Shown: piece by piece, positions 34,384-50,119 of the stretch | Layout of the letters: every line of letters starts with the position of its first letter | Position numbering within the stretch: the stretch's first letter is position 1 | Source of the DNA: Tissierellia bacterium | GTDB lineage: Bacteria > Bacillota > Clostridia > Tissierellales > Tepidimicrobiaceae | Reading direction: 5' to 3' | Assembly: GCA_036720245.1 (NCBI GenBank) | Contig: DAIMNI010000001.1 | Location: forward strand, 33,053 to 97,052 | Length of the DNA: 64,000 bases | Translations under genes and position numbers: made by a program | The notes under the pieces: generated by a model | The model's input: only the letters and a program-made list of their open reading frames with translations | What the model was told of the DNA's origin: nothing | Databases searched by the model: none

Positions 34384-34489
34384 TAACTTGACAATAGGCA
34401 TTAGCTTGTTTATAATATTTTTCATATATGTATATAATAAATTCGTTTAAAAGGCAAATTGACCAAATTATGGAAAAGGAGAGAGTTAG

Positions 34490-42888: not shown

Positions 42889-42910
42889 ATTTTAGAAAAT
42901 AATAAGGAAT

Positions 42911-43075
42911 CTTTAAATCAGTCCAGAGAGGCTGGCAAGATTGTGGGAATAATTATACTGATTATGTATAAAACTTCTTGCTGTCTGCAAGAAGTTTTTT
43001 TATGCAATCACAGCTTGCCTTTAAATCAGTCCAGAGAGGCTGAAAAGGAGATAGGACTCTCCTTAAATAAAAGGA
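42911..43075 (+). promoter_or_regulatory. two tandem PyrR-binding attenuator elements
   Basis: The 24-nt unit ctttaaatcagtccagagaggctg occurs at 42911-42934 and 43019-43042. It contains the PyrR loop consensus ARUCCAGAGAGGYU. The first is followed by the terminator aaacttcttgc-tgtc-tgcaagaagttt+T7 (42971-43001), the second by the hairpin aaggag-ataggact-ctcctt. Confidence 0.8.
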
Positions 43076-43084
43076 GGTTTTTTT

Positions 43085-44329
43085 ATGACAGAAAATATTA
43101 TGAAAAATAACACAGAAACTAGATTATTGGAAGGTTCAAAAAAGACTATATTGGCACTTCAACATTTAATAGCCATGTTTGGTGCTACAGTATTGGTACC
43201 TATACTAACAGGCTTTGATCCTTCAGTAGCATTGTTTACAGCAGGACTTGGCACATTAATTTTTCATCTATGCACTAAAGGTAAAGTACCAGTTTTCTTA
43301 GGCTCATCCTTTGCCTTTATACCAGTGATTTTAAAGGTAAGTGAAATTTATGGCGGAGATTTAGCCTATGCTCAAGGTGGAATGGTAGTAGCAGGTTTAA
43401 TATATATACTTTTTTCCTTTATCATTAAAAAAGTAGGCGTAGAGAAAATCCAAAAATATCTTTCACCTCAAGTAATAGGGCCAATGATAATAGTAATAGG
43501 AATGAATTTAATACCTACAGCTTTTGGCATGGCCAGTGGAAACTTTATAATAGCAGGAATTACTTTAGGAGTTACACTTTTGGTAAACTTCAAGGCCAAG
43601 GGATTTTTCAAACAATTATCCATTTTGACAGGTGTTATAGTAGGATATTTAATCTCCTTGAAAATGGGGATGGTAGGCACAGCAGCAATAAAAGCAGCAC
43701 CAATTTTAGCAATACCAGCCTTTAGATTACCAAAGTTTGATATAGGAGCAATTGCAATTATAGCACCAGTAGTATTAGCAGTATTTATGGAGCATTTAGG
43801 AGATATAACTACAAATGGACAAGTAGTAGGGAAAAACTTTATAGAAGACCCAGGCTTAAATAGAACTTTATTAGGGGACGGATTGGCAACCACTGTAGCA
43901 GCATTTTTAGGAGGACCTGCCAATACAACCTATGGAGAAAATACAGGAGTATTGGCCCTAACCAAAAACTACGATCCCTCTATATTAAGACTTGCAGCAG
44001 TATTTGCCATAGCACTAGGTTTTGTATCTAAAGTAGGTACAGTATTAACCACTATACCAGCCCCAGTTATGGGTGGCATAAGTTTAATGCTATTTAGTAT
44101 GATTTCCTTAATAGGTGTAAAAACCATAAAGACAAGTAAAGTTAAGTTTAACTGGAGAAATATAATTATTATGGGTAGTATATTATTAATAGGCCTAGGT
44201 AGCGGAATAATTGAAAGTAAATATGGTATAACAATAGGAATTCCAGTAAATGAAACAGTTAAAATATCAGGATTAAGTTTAGCGGCCATAGTGGGAATAG
44301 TTTTAAATGCAGTATTGAATAGAGAATAA
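43085..44329 (+). CDS. pyrP: uracil permease (NCS2 family)
   Basis: ALQHLIAMFGATVLVPILTGF..., 12-14 TM segments, NTTYGENTGVLALT motif. PyrR-controlled leader upstream. Confidence 0.9.
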   Translation: MTENIMKNNTETRLLEGSKKTILALQHLIAMFGATVLVPILTGFDPSVALFTAGLGTLIFHLCTKGKVPVFLGSSFAFIPVILKVSEIYGGDLAYAQGGMVVAGLIYILFSFIIKKVGVEKIQKYLSPQVIGPMIIVIGMNLIPTAFGMASGNFIIAGITLGVTLLVNFKAKGFFKQLSILTGVIVGYLISLKMGMVGTAAIKAAPILAIPAFRLPKFDIGAIAIIAPVVLAVFMEHLGDITTNGQVVGKNFIEDPGLNRTLLGDGLATTVAAFLGGPANTTYGENTGVLALTKNYDPSILRLAAVFAIALGFVSKVGTVLTTIPAPVMGGISLMLFSMISLIGVKTIKTSKVKFNWRNIIIMGSILLIGLGSGIIESKYGITIGIPVNETVKISGLSLAAIVGIVLNAVLNRE

Positions 44330-44388
44330 GATTTAGGTTTAATATCTGAAAATACGTGAAACTAAACTGCATATGAATTAATTATTAT

Positions 44389-44416
44389 AAAGATAGCCTT
44401 TAAGAGCTATCTTTTA
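44389..44416 (+). terminator. intrinsic terminator after pyrP
   Basis: aaagatagc-ctttaaga-gctatcttt followed by T. Confidence 0.6.
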
Positions 44417-44544
44417 ATATAAATATAATAATGGGGGGCAATATATTATTTTAACCTTTGCTGATACATAGACAAAAAGAAATTATTAAGATATTATATA
44501 ATTAAAAGAATATCTTATGATTAATATTTAGGATGGTGATGTCT

Positions 44545-45327
44545 ATGGATAATAAGGTGAAATCTTTTAAAAGGTGCAAAATTTTCAATGAGGACTGTAT
44601 AAATATACTTAAAACGATACCAGACAATACTATTGATTTAATTCTCGCAGATCCTCCATATAATATTAGCAAATATTCTACTGGAAATATCTCATTACCA
44701 AATAGGACACCATTAAATAATGATATTGCAAATTGGGATGACGTGGAAATAGATCCTTTTGATTTTATTGAAGATTTTAAACGAATATTAAAGCCTACAG
44801 GTAATATTTTCATTTTTACTAGTTATAATCAAATTGGAAAATGGCATGAGGCTTTTGATAGCGAATTTGATACTTTTCAATTTATGATTTGGCATAAAAC
44901 TAATCCTCCACCTAAAATTTACAAAAATGGCTTTTTAAATAGTTGTGAATTAATTATTTGTATGTGGAATAGGGGGCATACTTGGAATTTTACCTCCCAA
45001 AAAGAAATGCATAACTTTATAGAAACCCCTATATGTATGGGAAAGGAAAGGCTTAGGGATCCTAAGCATCCTACACAAAAACCTCTGAAGGTATTAGAGC
45101 ATATAATTAAAATAGCATCAAATGAAAATGATTTAGTATTTGATCCGTTTATGGGTGTTTGCTCAACAGGAATAGCGTCATTAAAATTAAATAGACTTTT
45201 TGCTGGTTGCGAAATTGATAAAAAGTATTTTGATGCTTCTGCAAAAAGGATTGAAAATTTTTATTTTTCTAAAGGACTAAATAACATAGTAAAGGAAGTA
45301 AATGAAGAATATAAATTAAATTGGTAA
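44545..45327 (+). CDS. beta-class DNA N6-adenine (or N4-cytosine) methyltransferase, M1 of the R-M block
   Basis: Motif IV ILADPPYNI lies near the N-terminus, and the AdoMet motif HPTQKPLKVLEHII...VFDPFMGVCSTG near the C-terminus (beta permutation, HinfI/CcrM-like). The start could be 44533, 44539 or 44545. Confidence 0.85.
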   Translation: MDNKVKSFKRCKIFNEDCINILKTIPDNTIDLILADPPYNISKYSTGNISLPNRTPLNNDIANWDDVEIDPFDFIEDFKRILKPTGNIFIFTSYNQIGKWHEAFDSEFDTFQFMIWHKTNPPPKIYKNGFLNSCELIICMWNRGHTWNFTSQKEMHNFIETPICMGKERLRDPKHPTQKPLKVLEHIIKIASNENDLVFDPFMGVCSTGIASLKLNRLFAGCEIDKKYFDASAKRIENFYFSKGLNNIVKEVNEEYKLNW

Positions 45328-45372
45328 TAATAAACAACCTAGCCCTTGTTAAGAGGCCAAGTTGTTTATTAT
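45327..45372. terminator. bidirectional hairpin between convergent M1 and R genes
   Basis: 12-bp stem ataataaacaac / gttgtttattat overlapping both stop codons. Confidence 0.55.
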
Positions 45373-47150
45373 ACTGCTTTTATTTGTTTCCAGCTACCTA
45401 TCATAGAATCTATATTTTTCTCCCATTCAGTAAATGTTTTATAATTGAAACTCGCATTATGGATACATTCTATAAGATCCTTAAAATCGTCAATATTTAA
45501 ATTATTGTCATAAATATATTGAATTATATTTATATACTGCTCTATAGTTATTGGAACTACAGGGACTGGTTTTCCAATCCAAGATTCCCTATTTAATATA
45601 AAAAATTGCCATATTGTTCTTACGTTCATTCTAGAGGATATAAAAATGCCTAGCACCTGTTTATCTTCATTTTTTTCTATAAATTTATAAACATGATCTA
45701 TTACAGATGAACCTTCGTGTTCCCATTGTCTAACCCCGGTCATTAATGATACCTCTGGTATTAAAATATAGCTATTTTTATATAATTCCATATCGGGAGT
45801 ATTTCCCCTTCCTGGTGCAAATGCCCTTGGGGTCAAATCATCTTCAATTTTAAAATTGCGTTTTACATGGTGTTCCCCATCTATAGCTACAAGGGATTTC
45901 CAAGTATTACATTCTAGCCATAAAGCAGCCATATCTTCATTACCAGCTAAAATATCTTGAAATTTTTCAATTATCCCGTTCCTTTCTTCACTTGTTTTTG
46001 AATAATGCTTAATAAATAATTCTTCATTTAACGATAATATTTTATCAGATATATCCATATCTAATTTCATTAAACTTTCCTTTTCGGCAATATCTAAAGT
46101 GCTCAATTTATTTAATTGATTTAAATGTTCAGTTGAGAGTAATTCTAAATCTTTCTTGTTGACTTTATCAATTTTATTTTTATATAAATTTAATTTATTA
46201 TTAACTATAAATTGAAGGTTATCCATGTTATCCCATGGTAATTCTAAATTATAGGGATTGCCATACCATTCCATGTATTGAATAAAATCTTTTTCTGTAT
46301 TGGGAACGAATTTATACTTATCTTGTAGAAGTTCTACTTTTAATTTTGCATGTTCAGGAATGAATATTTTGGTATAGTAGCCTCGACCTTTTTGGCTAAA
46401 TAAACTGGTATATTCTAGAGTTCTAAACAGGGAATCGGAATAGTCCCTATAATAGGTTTCGGGTTTATTTTTTATTTCGGGGAAATTTTTATTCATTATA
46501 TCTGTAAATATATAGGTAACTTTTTTGGTATTTAACTTATTATCTAGTTTTTCATATCTTTTTCGAAATTCATTTATTGAATCAACTGCTATATCTAATT
46601 TATCTATATGGTTACACATAAATAGGTATCCTATCTCATATTTGTTTAAGGTATCAAAATGTTTAAATATATTTAATATTAATTCCATAGGGAATACATA
46701 TATATTGCTGTTTTGATATTTTTTCGTTACAGCTGGGGATGGAAATTGCATCTTCAACAATATTTTTATAAGTAGATTTTCATCCATCTTATTATTTTTA
46801 ACTAACTCCCCTGTCTCTGTAATATTAATTTTACCACACTTATCTACATATCCTAGACCATAGAATTCGTATGTAGTTTTATCATTTCTGCCTGCTGATT
46901 CTGTCTCATTTATATCATTTTTACCTGATAAATAATCTTCGTAAGAAAAGTATTTTTCCTCTAATTCTTCCCAATGGGAATTATAGATGTACTTTCTTCT
47001 TATAGGATAAATAGTTTTATTATTAAAACTACTTATCTTATCTTCCGATTTATAATTCCAATTATGCCCTTCTAATTCAGCAAAATAGGGAAACCATTCA
47101 AAGGTTCTCAAAATACTCCTAGGCTTTGTTCGAAACCACCAAGAATTCAT
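45369..47150 (-). CDS. AlwI/BstNBI/PleI/MlyI-family type IIS restriction (or nicking) endonuclease
   Basis: 593 aa. It shares blocks with my recollection of N.BstNBI. N-terminal W..S/T..PRS....EG: here SWWFRTKPRSILRTFEWFPYFAELEG. Central LLKMQFPSP...LNKYEIGYLFMC. C-terminal catalytic block GNTPDMELYKNSYILIPEVSLMTGVRQWEHEGSSVIDH versus GNQPDMEIIYEDFIVLGEVTTSKGATQFKMESEPVTRH. Co-oriented just downstream of a methyltransferase. Confidence 0.7.
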   Translation of the reverse strand: MNSWWFRTKPRSILRTFEWFPYFAELEGHNWNYKSEDKISSFNNKTIYPIRRKYIYNSHWEELEEKYFSYEDYLSGKNDINETESAGRNDKTTYEFYGLGYVDKCGKINITETGELVKNNKMDENLLIKILLKMQFPSPAVTKKYQNSNIYVFPMELILNIFKHFDTLNKYEIGYLFMCNHIDKLDIAVDSINEFRKRYEKLDNKLNTKKVTYIFTDIMNKNFPEIKNKPETYYRDYSDSLFRTLEYTSLFSQKGRGYYTKIFIPEHAKLKVELLQDKYKFVPNTEKDFIQYMEWYGNPYNLELPWDNMDNLQFIVNNKLNLYKNKIDKVNKKDLELLSTEHLNQLNKLSTLDIAEKESLMKLDMDISDKILSLNEELFIKHYSKTSEERNGIIEKFQDILAGNEDMAALWLECNTWKSLVAIDGEHHVKRNFKIEDDLTPRAFAPGRGNTPDMELYKNSYILIPEVSLMTGVRQWEHEGSSVIDHVYKFIEKNEDKQVLGIFISSRMNVRTIWQFFILNRESWIGKPVPVVPITIEQYINIIQYIYDNNLNIDDFKDLIECIHNASFNYKTFTEWEKNIDSMIGSWKQIKAV

Positions 47151-47173
47151 AAGTATACCACCTTTCTCTAGTA

Positions 47174-48298
47174 TTAATAATTGGTAATTAATAAATGTTC
47201 AGTAGATCTATTATTTCGATTTTGGAAACTTACTAAATATTTTTTATCAAAAGCCAATACATTGAAACCTTTATTTAAATACAGTTCTCTAATTAGTTTT
47301 GTGCTTTTTATTACTAGCATGAATTTGGCTCCTGTATTATATAAATAGTTTGCAAGTCTCATTTGATCACTAGGGGTAAAGGACATTCCTACATAATCAG
47401 AAAACTCACTATCATATGGCGGATCTAGGAATATAAAATCATCTTTACTAGGATTTATAGTTTCAAAAAAATCTTCGAAATCTAGATTGTATATTTCTGT
47501 TTTTTGTAAATGTTGTACTAAACCAGGGCTTTTTAAATAATCAATTTTTTTGCCAAAGTCCTTTCTATTATAGGACATTCCCCCATATGGCACATTAAAT
47601 TTCCCCTGCTTATTATATCGAAACATACTAGCGTAACAGTATTCCCTAATGAAATAAAAAATAGCTGTATGAAAAGGCAAGCTTATATTATACTTTTCTG
47701 CATTATTATATAAATGTCTAAAGTGCATATAATAGGCTGACTTGAATGCTGTCTCAATATTATTAACTACATCTTCATCTGGTAGTTTTCCTCGCTCCTG
47801 CTCAATTTTTTTCATTCTTCCAGTTCTTCTAATTAAATTTTTCTTTATTTCTTTTATAAAATTTTCTATATTAATATTAAATGATGTAGATAGAACACCA
47901 TTAAATTCATGAGCATTATTTAAAATAAATTCTACGATAAAATCATCTAATTCAGATTTATTTATTTTATCACAGGAATAATGCTTATATTTATCCACAA
48001 ATAGTTGAGAATGTTTTTCCACAATTTTCTCTAAGGCCTTCCAATTATAATATATGGCATCGATTTTATCATAAAATTCTTGATTTCCTTCTTGTAACAT
48101 TTTATATAAATTAATTAATTCCTCAGATTTATCATTAATAATTATATCCTTATTTTCTATAGAAAGGTATACTGCTCCCCCACCTACAAAAGGCTCTAGA
48201 TATCTATTATAGTTTTCTGGCACATTTGGGAGTATGTGAACTAATTCTTGCTCCTTTCCACCAGCCCATTTAATAAAAGGGGTTAATCTATCTTGCAT
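47174..48298 (-). CDS. alpha-class (Dam/D12-type) DNA N6-adenine methyltransferase, M2 of the R-M block
   Basis: TPFIKWAGGKEQEL, EPFVGGGAVY (FxGxG) and FIFLDPPYDSEF (motif IV). 374 aa, longer than Dam, with a central insertion. Confidence 0.85.
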   Translation of the reverse strand: MQDRLTPFIKWAGGKEQELVHILPNVPENYNRYLEPFVGGGAVYLSIENKDIIINDKSEELINLYKMLQEGNQEFYDKIDAIYYNWKALEKIVEKHSQLFVDKYKHYSCDKINKSELDDFIVEFILNNAHEFNGVLSTSFNINIENFIKEIKKNLIRRTGRMKKIEQERGKLPDEDVVNNIETAFKSAYYMHFRHLYNNAEKYNISLPFHTAIFYFIREYCYASMFRYNKQGKFNVPYGGMSYNRKDFGKKIDYLKSPGLVQHLQKTEIYNLDFEDFFETINPSKDDFIFLDPPYDSEFSDYVGMSFTPSDQMRLANYLYNTGAKFMLVIKSTKLIRELYLNKGFNVLAFDKKYLVSFQNRNNRSTEHLLITNY

Positions 48299-48527
48299 AT
48301 TTTCACTCCTTATTTTTTATAATTAAATTATAACATAGAGATTGAAATACACAAAATAATTATATTAACTGGGTCTTATAGATAATATGGTAAACTAGTG
48401 AAGACTAAAGTAAAACTTGAGGGAAAAAATCACTAACTCAACTATCACTTGCTTGAAAATAAAATAATAAATCTGCTATTATAAGATTATAGGAGACCCT
48501 AAAAATTATATGAAAGGGAGAATGCAG

Positions 48528-49157
48528 ATGTTCGATACGCAGAAGGTGGGAAGGAAAATAGCAAAGATGCGAAAAGCTAAAAATATGACTCAAATGGAAT
48601 TGGCAGATACTATGAGTGTTAGTTATCAAGCAATTAGTAATTGGGAAAGGGGAAATTCTATGCCAGATATTTCAAAGTTACCAGATCTTGTTGAGATATT
48701 TGGTTGCAGTATAGATGAACTTCTCTCTAGTAGCGAAGAGACAGAACTATTAAATAATATAATTTTAGGAAACACGGAGGAATATATAAAAGATAATCCA
48801 GTGGCTATAGACACTGTATCTAATGCAGCACCTATACTTAAACCAAAACAAACAGAGGAGGTTGTGGAAATGGTATTAAATGAAAATACAATAAGTATAT
48901 ATGAACTAATGGAAATAGCCCCCTTTGTAGGGGAAGAATATTTGGATAAATTAGTGGAAAAGGTTGAGATCGTAGAAGATATATATGAATTATCAGCATT
49001 GATGCCATTTCTAAGTGAGGAAGCCTTAGGGAAATTGGCAAAACGTGTAGAACACATAGAAGATATAAATGATATAATGGTTTTAGCCCCTTTTTTAAGT
49101 GAGGAAACTTTAGCTGAATTGGCAATGAATATAGGAAAGGGGAAAAAAGAAAAATAG
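48528..49157 (+). CDS. XRE-family HTH regulator with triplicated about 28-aa C-terminal repeat
   Basis: HTH KMRKAKNMTQMELADTMSVSYQAISNWERGNSMPDISKLPDLVEIFGCSIDELL. This is followed by repeats ..IYELMEIAPFVGEEYLDKLVEKVE / IEDIYELSALMPFLSEEALGKLAKRVE / IEDINDIMVLAPFLSEETLAELAMNI. The ATG at 48528 has the best RBS spacing. Confidence 0.8.
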   Translation: MFDTQKVGRKIAKMRKAKNMTQMELADTMSVSYQAISNWERGNSMPDISKLPDLVEIFGCSIDELLSSSEETELLNNIILGNTEEYIKDNPVAIDTVSNAAPILKPKQTEEVVEMVLNENTISIYELMEIAPFVGEEYLDKLVEKVEIVEDIYELSALMPFLSEEALGKLAKRVEHIEDINDIMVLAPFLSEETLAELAMNIGKGKKEK

Positions 49158-49239
49158 AACTCTGTGATAAAGGGTATTTTAGAGATTACAACGGATGTAT
49201 TAGCACCATTTTTGTAAAAAAATTTATGAATAAAAAGGT

Positions 49240-49268
49240 TTGACATAATTTTACTATAATTGTATAAT
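49240..49268 (+). promoter_or_regulatory. consensus sigma-A promoter driving the repeat array and toxN
   Basis: TTGACA (49240-49245), 17 nt, TATAAT (49263-49268), with a TG extended -10 at 49261-49262. Confidence 0.75.
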
Positions 49269-49297
49269 AATATTAAGGATAGGAAACTATCAAATAA

Positions 49298-49377
49298 AAA
49301 GAGGAGACCCCATGCCTTAAGTTGGGATTATTTAAAGAGGAGACCCCATGCCTTAAGTTGGGATTTGAAAAAGAGGA
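49298..49377 (+). ncRNA. ToxI-like type III antitoxin RNA: 2.2 tandem 36-nt repeats
   Basis: Unit aaagaggagaccccatgccttaagttgggatt+4 nt starts at 49298 and 49334 (32/36 identical). A third unit starts at 49370 (aaagagga) and runs into the terminator stem. The period is exactly 36 nt. Confidence 0.7.
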
Positions 49378-49409
49378 TGAGGTAGTTTTACTACCTCATC
49401 TAGTCTTTT
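49376..49409 (+). terminator. hairpin (leaky terminator) between antitoxin repeats and toxin ORF
   Basis: Perfect 10-bp stem gatgaggtag-tttta-ctacctcatc, then tagtctttta (weak U tract). Confidence 0.65.
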
Positions 49410-49423
49410 AAAGGGTGATAAAT

Positions 49424-49843
49424 ATGGACAAAATTAGGTTTTTTAGAATAGATTTAGATTACATAAAATATCTTTGGAATTATGATAATAGAGTGCAGTA
49501 CAATATAAATGAATCTAATTCTTATAATAAAAGGAGACCATATATAGGGATTGTATTTAGGATAGGCAGTTTTAAATATTTTGCCCCATTAGAACATCCT
49601 AGAAAAAGCCATTTAAAATTAAAAAGCAACCCTCACATTTTGAAAATAAATAATGGGCGATATGGTTTAATTGCTTTTAACAATATGATACCAGTAAATG
49701 ATTCTGAACTAATAAGCTTTAATTTTAAAGATGAGGATTTAGCTTACCAAAAGATATTAATAAACCAATTTATTTTTTGTGATAATAACAAAAAACATAT
49801 TAGTTACCAAGCACAGAATACATATAACAAGGTTACGGTGTAA
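49424..49843 (+). CDS. toxN: ToxN/AbiQ-family type III toxin endoribonuclease (interrupted by in-frame TAA; frame continues to 49975)
   Basis: MDKIRFFRIDLDYIKYLWNYDNRV...RRPYIGIVFRIGSFKYFAPLEHPRKSH...YGLIAFNNMIPV...LINQFIF parallels my recollection of ToxN (FYTISSKYIEYLKEFDDKV...KAFIGIVLEIQGHKYLAPLTSPKKWH...LGLINLKFMIPI...LYKQLQFI). Confidence 0.75.
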   Translation: MDKIRFFRIDLDYIKYLWNYDNRVQYNINESNSYNKRRPYIGIVFRIGSFKYFAPLEHPRKSHLKLKSNPHILKINNGRYGLIAFNNMIPVNDSELISFNFKDEDLAYQKILINQFIFCDNNKKHISYQAQNTYNKVTV

Positions 49844-50119
49844 AAGGAATCGTTTTTTGTAAATATATGTTGTGATTTTAAACTGTTAGAGAAAAAATGT
49901 TTAGGATATAAATCCTATTTGGAAATGGTAGAAGAAGTTTCTATCACAAAGGAAATAGATATAAAAAAGGATTGAGATTTAAAGAAACTAAAGACATTAA
50001 AGTGAAAAATCTGATAGGAATACCTATCAGATTTTGTTCCATGTACAAAGAAGATAAATTTAGAATTAAGCCTACAGACGAAATCATTAAAGATTTACAT
50101 TTAGGAATAAAATATTATA

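Follow-up and report, generated by a model that had tools for sequence, protein, structure and literature searches.

The locus at 49240-49975 of the stretch of DNA analysed here (the window, 64 kb) raises the question of whether a promoter, a run of short repeats and a small ORF form a toxin-antitoxin system that is of type III and of the ToxIN/AbiQ kind, and whether such a system can still act as a suicide switch. Judged from the sequence, it is a genuine but ordinary ToxIN/AbiQ-family cassette, which probably no longer works as a suicide switch because its toxin gene has been shortened by a recent stop codon. Specifically, we consider it very likely that this is a chromosomal ToxIN-family cassette with a recent CAA to TAA change in toxN, most likely toxin-defective and decaying, in which the promoter, the repeat array and the terminators are intact. 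Its components all lie on the plus strand in the order promoter, 36-nt repeats, hairpin, ribosome-binding site, toxN ORF and downstream terminator:

49240-49268, plus strand: putative sigma-A/sigma-70-type promoter, TTGACA (49240-49245), 17-nt spacer, TATAAT (49263-49268)
49278-49291, plus strand: 5' leader stem-loop GAUAG-GAAA-CUAUC, in the 5'-terminal part of the predicted transcript (-5.2 kcal/mol, z = -10.7)
49298-49333, plus strand: ToxI-like antitoxin repeat unit 1, 36 nt (Tandem Repeats Finder, sequence and covariation)
49334-49369, plus strand: ToxI-like antitoxin repeat unit 2, 36 nt, core identical to unit 1, tail UUUGAAAAAG
49370-49377, plus strand: partial third repeat (AAAGAGGA), running into the 5' arm of the hairpin
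49375-49409, plus strand: palindromic hairpin and weak U tract (AGUCUUUU), from the sequence and a terminator scan
49413-49418, plus strand: Shine-Dalgarno-like GGGTGA, 5 nt before the ATG
49424-49843, plus strand: toxN allele, 139 codons and TAA (Pfam, PADLOC and PDB matches)
49841-49843, plus strand: premature stop TAA at codon 140, ancestral CAA (Gln), from the homologue alignment, the nearest genome locus and the profile continuation
49844-49975, plus strand: in-frame 3' remnant of toxN, 43 codons and TGA (49973-49975), two helices past the kinked helix (alignments and AlphaFold2)
50006-50041, plus strand: operon-end intrinsic terminator, 13-bp stem at 50006-50035 and U-rich tail (-16.7 kcal/mol, z = -5.4)

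Type III loci have been recognised by short nucleotide repeats in tandem immediately upstream of the toxin and a short palindromic repeat (a terminator) between these repeats and the toxin gene, with a promoter 5' of the repeats preferred but not strict (Blower et al., 2012; PMC3401426), and all three are present in the cassette. Together with the profile matches, the PDB sequence and fold matches and the covarying repeats described below, they support the architecture that the first-pass annotation had proposed. With regard to the promoter, both hexamers match the consensus (12 of 12 positions) as that annotation had read them, and the 64-kb window contains two exact copies of TTGACA-17-TATAAT where 0.04 would be expected. 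On the other hand, the extended -10 element it had added is non-canonical: the TG abuts TATAAT directly (TTGTATAAT) instead of forming TGnTATAAT, and the promoter scan was negative for TG. The transcription start is predicted at about 49275. Both hexamers are kept in the nearest genome locus, that of Clostridium sp. Cult3 (L011). The leader stem-loop is kept there too, an A to G change leaving its pairing intact as G.U, and it may stabilise the RNA.

The repeats lie where they had been claimed, with units starting at 49298, 49334 and 49370 (partial), and Tandem Repeats Finder reported a period of 36, 2.3 copies, 86% matches and a score of 136 at 49296-49377. In unit 1, stem 1 is predicted to pair GAGG (49301-49304) with CCUU (49315-49318) and stem 2 to pair CCCA (49309-49312) with UGGG (49323-49326), followed by an A/U-rich linker predicted to be single-stranded at 49327-49336. 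Among 80 genome loci with a homologous toxin, Tandem Repeats Finder detected 36/37-nt tandem repeats 5' of the toxin in 48, and 55 had paired repeat anchors at a distance of 34-39 nt. By sequence comparison, the repeats of the cassette are members of a widespread family that, in dozens of genomes, is located upstream of homologous toxins. In all, 84 distinct 36/37-nt units were collected. Pairs were counted on the 51 that are exactly 36 nt long; because these can be aligned without gaps, the alignment was not fitted to the structure. A MAFFT alignment of all 84 units was dropped for the pair counts, as its single gap column fits the structure of some 37-nt units but is misplaced in others. In the 51 units, the pseudoknot ..((((...[[[[[[.))))...]]]]]]....... 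was paired in 86% of cells, while shuffles gave 69% and sliding of the partners 29-46%, and double-change cells in the pseudoknot pairs numbered 108 against 35 expected. Pairs 4-19, 11-28, 12-27, 13-26 and 14-25 were paired in all 51 units, with two to four pair types each. Covariation thus strongly supports the prediction of a two-stem pseudoknot in each repeat. In this prediction the pseudoknot is flanked by single-stranded tails as in ToxIN, where the tails are A-rich; those predicted here are A/U-rich. One repeat folded alone gave no significant minimum-free-energy fold (z = 0.03), an uninformative result that is expected for a pseudoknot, and the pseudoknot rests on the covariation instead of thermodynamics. 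An RNA family model for a large branch of ToxI, borne mostly by Clostridia, could be built from the 84 units and their covarying pseudoknot.

Between the repeats and the ORF, the hairpin with a weak U tract that had been noted earlier is present as a stem-loop of 12 pairs with a 3-nt loop at 49375-49401 (-19.5 kcal/mol, z = -5.5 against shuffles), and its stem is identical in the Cult3 locus. By analogy with ToxIN (PMC3401426), this hairpin would act between antitoxin and toxin as an intrinsic terminator with an attenuating role. The ribosome-binding site and the ORF follow it as described before. The start is most probably the ATG at 49424 and not the GTG at 49415, in agreement with the N-termini of the homologues. 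The operon-end terminator begins 30 nt past the ancestral stop codon.

The first-pass annotation had suggested searching the ORF against the ToxN/AbiQ family model, in a version ending at 49843 and a read-through version ending at 49975, and this search gave highly significant matches. The 139-aa ORF matched Pfam PF13958 (ToxN_toxin) with E=2.5e-35 and 122.5 bits (cut-off 25) over profile positions 2-135 of 159, and the read-through version with E=2e-43 over positions 2-157 of 159; the PADLOC AbiQ model gave 5e-32 and 5e-43, respectively. Sequence matches in the PDB were 4ato (3e-21), 4glk, 7d8o and 2xd0. An AlphaFold2 model of the read-through protein, which represents the ancestral full length and not the truncated product, had a pLDDT of 90.1 and, at residues 106-121/123-138, the long kinked helix that together with a twisted antiparallel sheet marks the ToxN fold. 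In a Foldseek search with this model the top four matches were again 4ato, 4glk, 7d8o and 2xd0, all solved ToxN/AbiQ structures, with TM scores of 0.69-0.78. CptIN (Eubacterium rectale, PDB 4RMO) and TenpIN share the same overall layout, with the RNA repeats of the antitoxin ahead of an endoribonuclease toxin whose fold is related, and CptN (4rmo) was a marginal fold match (Foldseek E=0.07, TM 0.52). Membership in either group was rejected, since the toxin had no Pfam, PADLOC or PDB sequence match to them, and ToxN_toxin and AbiQ were the sole models matched.

Among characterised systems, ToxIN of Bacillus thuringiensis pAW63 (PDB 4ATO) is the best match in sequence (E=3e-21, 32% identity) and in fold (TM 0.70/0.76). 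It resembles the cassette in its Gram-positive host, in its two to three repeats of about 35 nt (2.9 x 34-nt ToxI there), in the order of promoter, repeats, hairpin and toxN, and in the A-rich linker, where its cleavage motif is AAA^AA (PMC8860590). The two differ in that its repeat is 34 nt and unrelated in sequence to the 36-nt repeat here. ToxIN of Pectobacterium atrosepticum pECA1039 (PDB 2XDB/2XD0), the archetype of the family, shares the 36-nt period and the locus architecture (PMC3401426), and its toxin is a fold match (TM 0.70/0.78) at 26% protein identity, whereas it has 5.5 x 36-nt repeats, is plasmid-borne and belongs to a Gram-negative host. The P. atrosepticum ToxI, whose sequence is confirmed here for its first 21 nt only, in a primer (AAGGTGATTTGCTACCTTTAAG), has the same pseudoknot topology as that predicted for the repeats of the window: the 5' arm of stem 1, the 5' arm of stem 2, the 3' arm of stem 1, a UAAGU-like loop, the 3' arm of stem 2 and an A-rich tail. 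With regard to AbiQ/antiQ of Lactococcus lactis pSRQ900 (PDB 4GLK; 2.8 x 35-nt antiQ), the PADLOC AbiQ model spans the window toxin end to end, the fold match is TM 0.69/0.76 at 26% identity and the repeat number is similar, though this system is plasmid-borne. In the plasmid database no close annotated relative was found, the nearest match being 37% identical. The nearest relatives, with 66-73% protein identity, are in Tissierella praeacuta, Acidilutibacter cellobiosedens and Clostridium sp. Cult3, which, together with a G+C content of 31% and one contig name reading 'fermentation metagenome', suggest a Tissierellia/Clostridia anaerobe as the probable host. These toxins are uncharacterised, are annotated as 'type III toxin-antitoxin system ToxN/AbiQ family toxin' and share with the window toxin the loop PLEHPR.

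This loop sets the toxin apart. The conserved ToxN/AbiQ blocks that the first-pass annotation had remembered are real, except that the catalytic loop is E-H-P-R, which differs from both ToxN and AbiQ. When aligned to the characterised ToxNs, the five active-site positions are Y34, R38, E57, H58 and R60, which are invariant or nearly so within the clade. Compared with the active site of P. atrosepticum ToxN (Tyr29, Lys33, Thr52, Ser53 and Lys55; PMC5086642), the Tyr is kept, both Lys are replaced by Arg and Thr-Ser by Glu-His. The clade invariably has Glu-His-Pro-Arg where characterised ToxNs have Thr/Ser-Ser-x-Lys (L-E-H-P-R-K here, L-T-S-R-N-D-K in B. thuringiensis ToxN), so the catalytic loop (E57, H58 and R60) is chemically unlike that of every characterised ToxN. 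However, residue identity does not define the family, because AbiQ also departs at one position, with Leu-Ser at the catalytic loop, of which Ser51 is essential. The clade comprises at least 238 protein clusters, 88 matches in a one-genome-per-species collection and 58 viral contigs; it occurs for the most part in Clostridia, and frequently on IMG/VR viral contigs. Its clade-wide Glu-His-Pro-Arg loop offers a concrete and cheap hypothesis for ToxN enzymology.

Both versions of the ORF that had been offered before are thus present, and PF13958 fits the read-through version better, though a truncation had not been concluded from them. The stop codon TAA stands where most of the closest homologues have Gln and where the Cult3 locus has CAA at the aligned codon. 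The homologues are 185-196 aa long, and the Tissierella and Acidilutibacter proteins are full length at 183-197 aa, while the 139-aa ORF keeps roughly the N-terminal 85% of the ToxN domain. The stop falls just past helix 123-138 and removes the helices at 143-148 and from 152 onward (about 44 residues), that is, everything after the kinked helix, and for this reason the 139-aa toxin is, from its sequence, probably inactive. One could argue instead that the cassette is fully functional and that its ToxN is naturally short, active, controlled by the repeats and still able to abort phage infection. All five active-site positions and the kinked RNA-binding helix precede the stop, the promoter, the antitoxin array and both terminators are intact, and contigs from nine sample accessions carry the allele; the 139-aa product may accordingly keep some residual nuclease activity. 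Yet an intact full-length toxin ORF was not found, and the missing part belongs to the conserved Pfam domain, of which profile positions 136-157 of 159 are encoded only past the stop. The remnant keeps all five invariant residues of this part (F144, C150, F152, L155 and E156), and the model has a pLDDT of 97-98 over residues 131-160. Moreover, the allele ends immediately before the residue (141) that aligns with Lys148 of B. thuringiensis ToxN, which contacts ToxI (PMC5086642). None of the full-length homologues among the 120 listed ends at this point. Recurrent truncation was considered and rejected, because the few short homologues (P0127, P0043, P0087 and P0104) are N-terminal or contig-end fragments or end elsewhere, with no stop at codon 140 in these four, and a true internal stop was found in one of the 80 genome loci (that of Cult3). 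Past the stop, the frame remains open and homologous, as one would see after a very recent lesion but not in a shorter gene that has settled. Since the contigs that carry the allele are 99.8-100% identical to the window, they represent one lineage and not independent retention. A working short toxin is therefore unlikely. Expression of the 3' remnant as a split gene was also rejected, since no in-frame ATG, GTG or TTG with a ribosome-binding site lies near 49844. Full antitoxin arrays alongside partial toxins have been noted at other loci, whose toxicity was left open (Blower et al., 2012; PMC3401426).

The open and homologous continuation would also be expected if the stop were a sequencing or assembly error, or were read through or recoded, so that the real product is 183 aa. 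This seems extremely improbable: the same stop and the same 139-aa product recur on all 10 of the contigs listed (16 read), from separate ENA, JGI and Logan assemblies that agree with the window at the identity given above, and it is therefore not a sequencing error. The samples behind these contigs are SRR1562003, SRR1561997, ERZ922849, ERZ724034/36/39, ERZ17905983, ERZ27283062/66 and JGI 3300038317. As for recoding, no signal of it is seen, and 26 of the 41 long ORFs in the window end in TAA, more than in any other stop, which argues against recoding here. TAA is not known to be reassigned in any bacterial genetic code.

Taking the toxin-defective cassette as the preferred reading, we propose a mechanism whose architecture comes from the sequence and whose function is modelled on ToxIN of P. 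atrosepticum, B. thuringiensis and E. coli and on AbiQ. One transcript would start from the strong constitutive promoter at 49240-49268, its 5' part consisting of the small hairpin and the 2.3 tandem repeats. The majority of transcripts would stop at the hairpin at 49375-49401, as precursors of about 125-135 nt with their 3' end in the U tract at 49405-49409, and a minority continue into toxN, so that the antitoxin RNA would be kept in excess. In the intact system, the precursor would be cut by ToxN in the A/U-rich linkers between repeats, and each 36-nt product would fold into the two-stem pseudoknot, whose single-stranded tails would occupy the active sites of two ToxN molecules to give a closed, inactive RNA-protein ring. 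Phage infection would perturb the supply or stability of the RNA and free ToxN to cleave the RNA of the cell. In the window, the change of CAA to TAA at codon 140, right after the kinked helix, has removed two well-ordered conserved helices and the equivalent of Lys148, probably leaving a toxin-defective, decaying defence module with its promoter, antitoxin array and terminators still intact. The copy number of the repeats differs by one (2.3 and 3.3) between contigs otherwise 99.9% identical to the window. In AbiQ, the gain or loss of one repeat is tolerated for antitoxicity and lowers phage resistance (PMC5086642), which bears on this polymorphism. The window, where the toxin carries one C to T, the antitoxin is intact and the copy number of the repeats differs by one, is a clean natural example of early decay in a suicide-type defence module.

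The Cult3 locus suggests a further explanation for the intact array. Its promoter, leader, repeat and hairpin are nearly identical to those of the window, and its toxN carries an independent nonsense codon (Q25*) while the array is intact. After the death of the toxin, the strongly expressed antitoxin might be selected as an 'orphan' immunity or anti-addiction RNA that would neutralise related ToxN toxins arriving on prophages or plasmids. Between the two loci the promoter, leader, repeats and hairpin are better conserved than the coding part, the clade is frequent on viral contigs so that incoming cognate toxins are plausible, and escape through a pseudo-ToxI with which a phage suppresses ToxN has been documented (PMC5086642). 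However, such loci number only two, and the lesion in each looks recent, as neither gene has decayed further; a plain lag before decay accounts equally well for the intact array, and high conservation of the RNA is equally expected of a working system. Selection of the array in this role is thus quite improbable. A related proposal, which we regard as rather unlikely, is that the PLEHPR clade is a mechanistically distinct ToxN branch in which the Glu-His pair (E57/H58), with both active-site Lys replaced by Arg, would cleave RNA where every characterised ToxN or AbiQ uses a Thr/Ser-Ser-Lys centre, and that the toxin-dead loci of the window and Cult3 keep highly expressed arrays as immunity RNAs against phage-borne toxins of the clade. 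Decay following the recent stop remains the reading that we prefer.

The locus had also been described as invisible to ORF-based annotation, leaving a lone hypothetical protein. This does not hold for the protein, as the exact 139-aa product is present in NCBI, JGI and ENA with a precomputed PF13958 match and is named 'protein AbiQ' in JGI. On the other hand, it holds for the RNA, which is the only unannotated part of the cassette: no ToxI or relevant family was found in Rfam, either at 48900-50300 by an E-value threshold or over the whole window at the gathering threshold. The Rfam scans returned chance snoRNA and miRNA-like matches only, on the hairpin. The 139-aa product had no match in NCBIfam. 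In type III systems, standard profiles already pick up the protein half, whereas the RNA half (promoter, repeats and attenuator) is missing from Rfam and can be mis-called as a small ORF. One metagenome gene call covered the repeats with a spurious 53-aa ORF. The general picture of type III systems is unchanged by these results.

A restriction-modification system, which had been noted nearby, is present at 44533-48298 as context outside the cassette, and an XRE-family gene lies between them (all assigned by Pfam):

44533-45327, plus strand: N6_N4 methyltransferase
45369-47150, minus strand: RE_AlwI (AlwI-family) endonuclease
47174-48298, minus strand: D12 Dam-like methyltransferase
48510-49157, plus strand: XRE-family HTH protein, 215 aa, immediately upstream of the cassette (HTH_3 and HTH_19)

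The XRE-family protein was rejected as a conserved partner of the cassette, since it is not kept in the Cult3 locus, where the upstream gene appears to be a different, unrelated ORF and no XRE-like ORF is seen.

The locus is one more ToxIN/AbiQ-type member, already a known sort of system, because its protein is already annotated and it has every architectural feature that Blower et al. 2012 (PMC3401426) use as a criterion; they also recorded other loci in which a full antitoxin array goes with a partial toxin. The locus is of modest interest: it is a clean case of early toxin decay, it shows repeat copy-number polymorphism together with related contigs, it carries a ToxI-like RNA family with covariation support that is missing from Rfam, and its clade has a Glu-His catalytic loop that merits an enzymology test. 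The cassette is arranged as follows.

49240-49268, forward strand: promoter, TTGACA (49240-49245), 17 nt, TATAAT (49263-49268)
49296-49377, forward strand: 36-nt tandem repeats, 2.3 copies (Tandem Repeats Finder, score 136)
49375-49401, forward strand: hairpin with a 12-bp stem (-19.5 kcal/mol, z = -5.5), into which the partial third repeat unit merges
49424-49843, forward strand: toxN ORF, ATG 49424 to TAA 49841-49843, 139 aa, with a GGGTGA Shine-Dalgarno sequence 5' of the ATG
50006-50035: terminator hairpin, 13 bp (z = -5.4), 30 nt past the ancestral stop at 49975

Most of this layout had been described in the first-pass annotation and was recovered here. The sigma-A promoter scored 12/12 in a consensus scan, and exact TTGACA-17-TATAAT is found at two places in the window, where shuffles predict 0.04, the sole other perfect copy being at 34388-34416. 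The claimed extended TG is not canonical, as the TG abuts the -10 hexamer without the one-base gap and the scan flags it absent. Reading of 49100-50200 and Tandem Repeats Finder placed the repeat units at 49298, 49334 and 49370 as proposed, and the same reading showed the ribosome-binding site and ORF after the claimed hairpin, which is directly followed by AGUCUUUU. The locus had also been called invisible to ORF calling. This stands for the RNA, since Rfam scans of the cassette region gave no relevant family, and fails for the protein, whose exact 139-aa product is already in NCBI, JGI and ENA with PF13958, under the JGI name 'protein AbiQ'; related proteins go under the name 'type III toxin-antitoxin system ToxN/AbiQ family toxin'. 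A spurious repetitive ORF of 41 aa (49260-49385) arises from the repeat array, and one metagenome annotation calls a 53-aa gene over the repeats of contig L002 (1777-1938); such calls are antitoxin RNA mis-annotated as protein-coding.

The proposed ToxN/AbiQ identity of the ORF was borne out by profile search. Pfam ToxN_toxin matched the 139-aa product with 122.5 bits (cut-off 25; E=2.5e-35; profile positions 2-135 of 159), and reading the stop as X extended this to position 157 of 159 (E=2e-43); the PADLOC AbiQ model behaved in the same way, matching both the 139-aa and read-through versions. The sole matches in a PDB sequence search were four solved ToxN-family toxins, from B. thuringiensis (4ato, ToxN, E=3e-21), AbiQ (4glk), E. 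coli (7d8o, ToxN) and P. atrosepticum (2xd0, ToxN). The same four ranked first (TM 0.69-0.78) in Foldseek with an AlphaFold2 model of the 183-aa read-through protein (built on 17 sequences; pLDDT 90.1, pTM 0.84), followed by a distant CptN (E=0.07) and then MazF and CcdB. A GTG start at 49415, taken from the mechanical ORF list, was rejected; the start is ATG 49424 because homologues begin M-[DNQ]-K-I-R-F.

The TAA at codon 140 is premature. Homologues at 63-73% identity have 185-196 aa versus 139 aa here, most of the closest sequences have Gln in the stop column, and the 43 codons 3' of the stop retain each of the five residues that are invariant there (F144, C150, F152, L155, E156). In the DNA alignment, the nearest genome locus, L011 of Clostridium sp. 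Cult3, has CAA at the TAA of the window, so that one C to T transition accounts for the lesion. The terminator at 50006-50035 marks the original operon end. A sequencing or assembly error was rejected as the source of the stop, because separate ENA, JGI and Logan assemblies from nine sample accessions, 99.8-100% identical to the window, encode the identical protein (10 of 10 contigs among the matches listed; 16 read). Recoding of TAA was likewise rejected because this codon terminates 26 of the 41 long ORFs of the window. The premature stop lies just past the long kinked helix, which the model shows as helices 106-121 and 123-138 (compare alpha-4 of E. coli ToxN, Pro109-Gln141; PMC8860590), and removes helices 143-148 and 152 onward, modelled at pLDDT 97-98. 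In the PDB sequence alignment, the first residue lost, 141, aligns with Lys148 of B. thuringiensis ToxN, which touches ToxI (PMC5086642). The truncated toxin is thus quite probably inactive, though some residual activity of the 139-aa product is conceivable because all five active-site positions precede the stop.

The L011 toxN locus (L011 3001-3537; NZ_PPXY01000001.1) shares with the window the -35 and -10 hexamers, an identical attenuator stem and nearly identical repeats; its 5' leader hairpin differs by one pairing-preserving change, and its toxin is 71% identical. Its toxN has its own nonsense codon, a TAA at the invariant Gln25; the promoter, leader and hairpin of L011 and its 2.9 repeats are intact. 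The two nonsense codons differ, and the lesions are therefore independent. It is notable that both genome-resolved members of the sub-clade are probably toxin-dead, though no general rule can be drawn from two cases; among 80 loci, no true internal stop in toxN was found other than that of L011. The metagenome contigs L001 (2954-3061), L002 and L004, 99.9% identical to the window, have 3.3 repeats versus 2.3 at 49298-49377, which is gain or loss of one repeat between near-identical sequences. The extra unit carries C to U at pseudoknot position 12, keeping a G.U pair. For AbiQ, one repeat more or fewer is tolerated for antitoxicity, with lowered phage resistance (PMC5086642).

When one genome per species was scanned, 88 loci encoded a relative and 80 were kept. 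Tandem Repeats Finder detected 36/37-nt arrays of 2-3.3 copies within 350 nt upstream of the toxin in 48 of the 80, and AAG[CA]GG anchors spaced 34-39 nt gave units in 55. The consensus across loci is AAGCGG..A..CCC..GCCGUAAGU.GGGACUUAAAA, and the unit of the window is AAGAGGAGACCCCAUGCCUUAAGUUGGGAUUAUUUA. Units were chosen by the anchor alone, independent of structure. The pseudoknot ..((((...[[[[[[.))))...]]]]]]....... was scored on the 51 distinct units that are 36 nt long, which align without gaps. Standard pairs filled 86.1% of cells versus 69.1% in column shuffles, none of 500 of which reached 86.1%, and pairing fell to 29-46% when partners were slid by 1-3 columns. Double-sided changes were found in 108 cells, where 34.7 were expected. 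At pair 4-19, 40 units have C-G, 11 have A-U and none is unpaired, and pairs 11-28, 12-27, 13-26 and 14-25 are paired in 51/51 with 2-4 pair types each. The pseudoknot is backed by this covariation. In unit 1, the predicted stem 1 pairs GAGG (49301-49304) with CCUU (49315-49318) and the predicted stem 2 pairs CCCA (49309-49312) with UGGG (49323-49326). P. atrosepticum ToxI presumably has its elements in the same order: stem 1 5' arm, stem 2 5' arm, stem 1 3' arm, UAAGU-like loop, stem 2 3' arm and A-rich tail; a primer sequence confirmed its first 21 nt. By analogy, ToxN would be expected to cut in the A/U-rich linker between units; in characterised ToxNs, cleavage falls between A residues (AA^AU, GAA^AU, AAA^AA; PMC8860590). 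In seven loci of the 47-50%-identity group (L022, L025, L028, L029, L035, L036, L090), Tandem Repeats Finder gave no 36/37-nt repeat upstream of the toxin, and these arrays may be too diverged for it; the seven loci have an AAGAGG...CCUA...GGG unit and, 37 nt further along, another AAGAGG anchor.

In ToxN of P. atrosepticum and of E. coli, the active site consists of Tyr29, Lys33, Thr52, Ser53 and Lys55 (PMC5086642; PMC8860590), and the PDB sequence alignment places Y34, R38, E57, H58 and R60 of the window there, so that both active-site Lys are Arg. The window has a Glu-His-Pro-Arg loop (codons 57-60, 49592-49603), whereas in the four PDB proteins and the plasmid ToxNs of C. botulinum, Pasteurella and Fusobacterium this stretch is [TSL]-S-x-K or close to it. 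A-P-L-E-H-P does not vary within the clade and R60 hardly does, partly by construction because the patterns used for retrieval included PLEHP; the difference from characterised toxins is real. No discussion of this loop variant was found in the literature searched. The clade has at least 238 protein clusters, with 88 hits in the one-genome-per-species collection and 58 IMG/VR viral contigs (L097-L154), whose toxins are 37-46% identical (one partial match 52%); the nearest plasmid hit has 37% identity. The clade looks largely prophage- or phage-borne because these viral contigs encode toxins and three viral contigs have repeats of the window type, in one case as three tandem copies (L094, 1541-1640).

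The cassette had been placed next to a restriction-modification system, and these genes indeed lie upstream.

42906-43003: PyrR-binding site 5' of a uracil/xanthine permease gene (43085-44329)
44533-48298: restriction-modification system (N6_N4 methyltransferase, AlwI-family endonuclease, D12 methyltransferase)
48510-49157: XRE-family HTH gene between this system and the cassette
50194-50883: apparent DagR/LevR-type regulator remnant, 229 aa, downstream, then PTS IIA and MupG genes
56099-56320: T-box leader 5' of a 1059-aa ORF (56294-59473)

The endonuclease is flanked by methyltransferases of two classes, N6_N4 and D12, and two differing methyltransferases around an endonuclease are typical of type IIS systems. 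G+C at 44000-48000 is 0.25-0.30, slightly below the upstream flank (0.31-0.36). The cassette neighbours in L011 are unlike those in the window, as would fit a mobile module. In the 229-aa ORF an N-terminal winged HTH is joined to a match to positions 245-361 of the 938-residue DagR sigma-54 regulator model; the ORF seems to be a regulator that was truncated or lost an internal part, at the edge of the defence islet. The T-box leader and the PyrR-binding site are ordinary.
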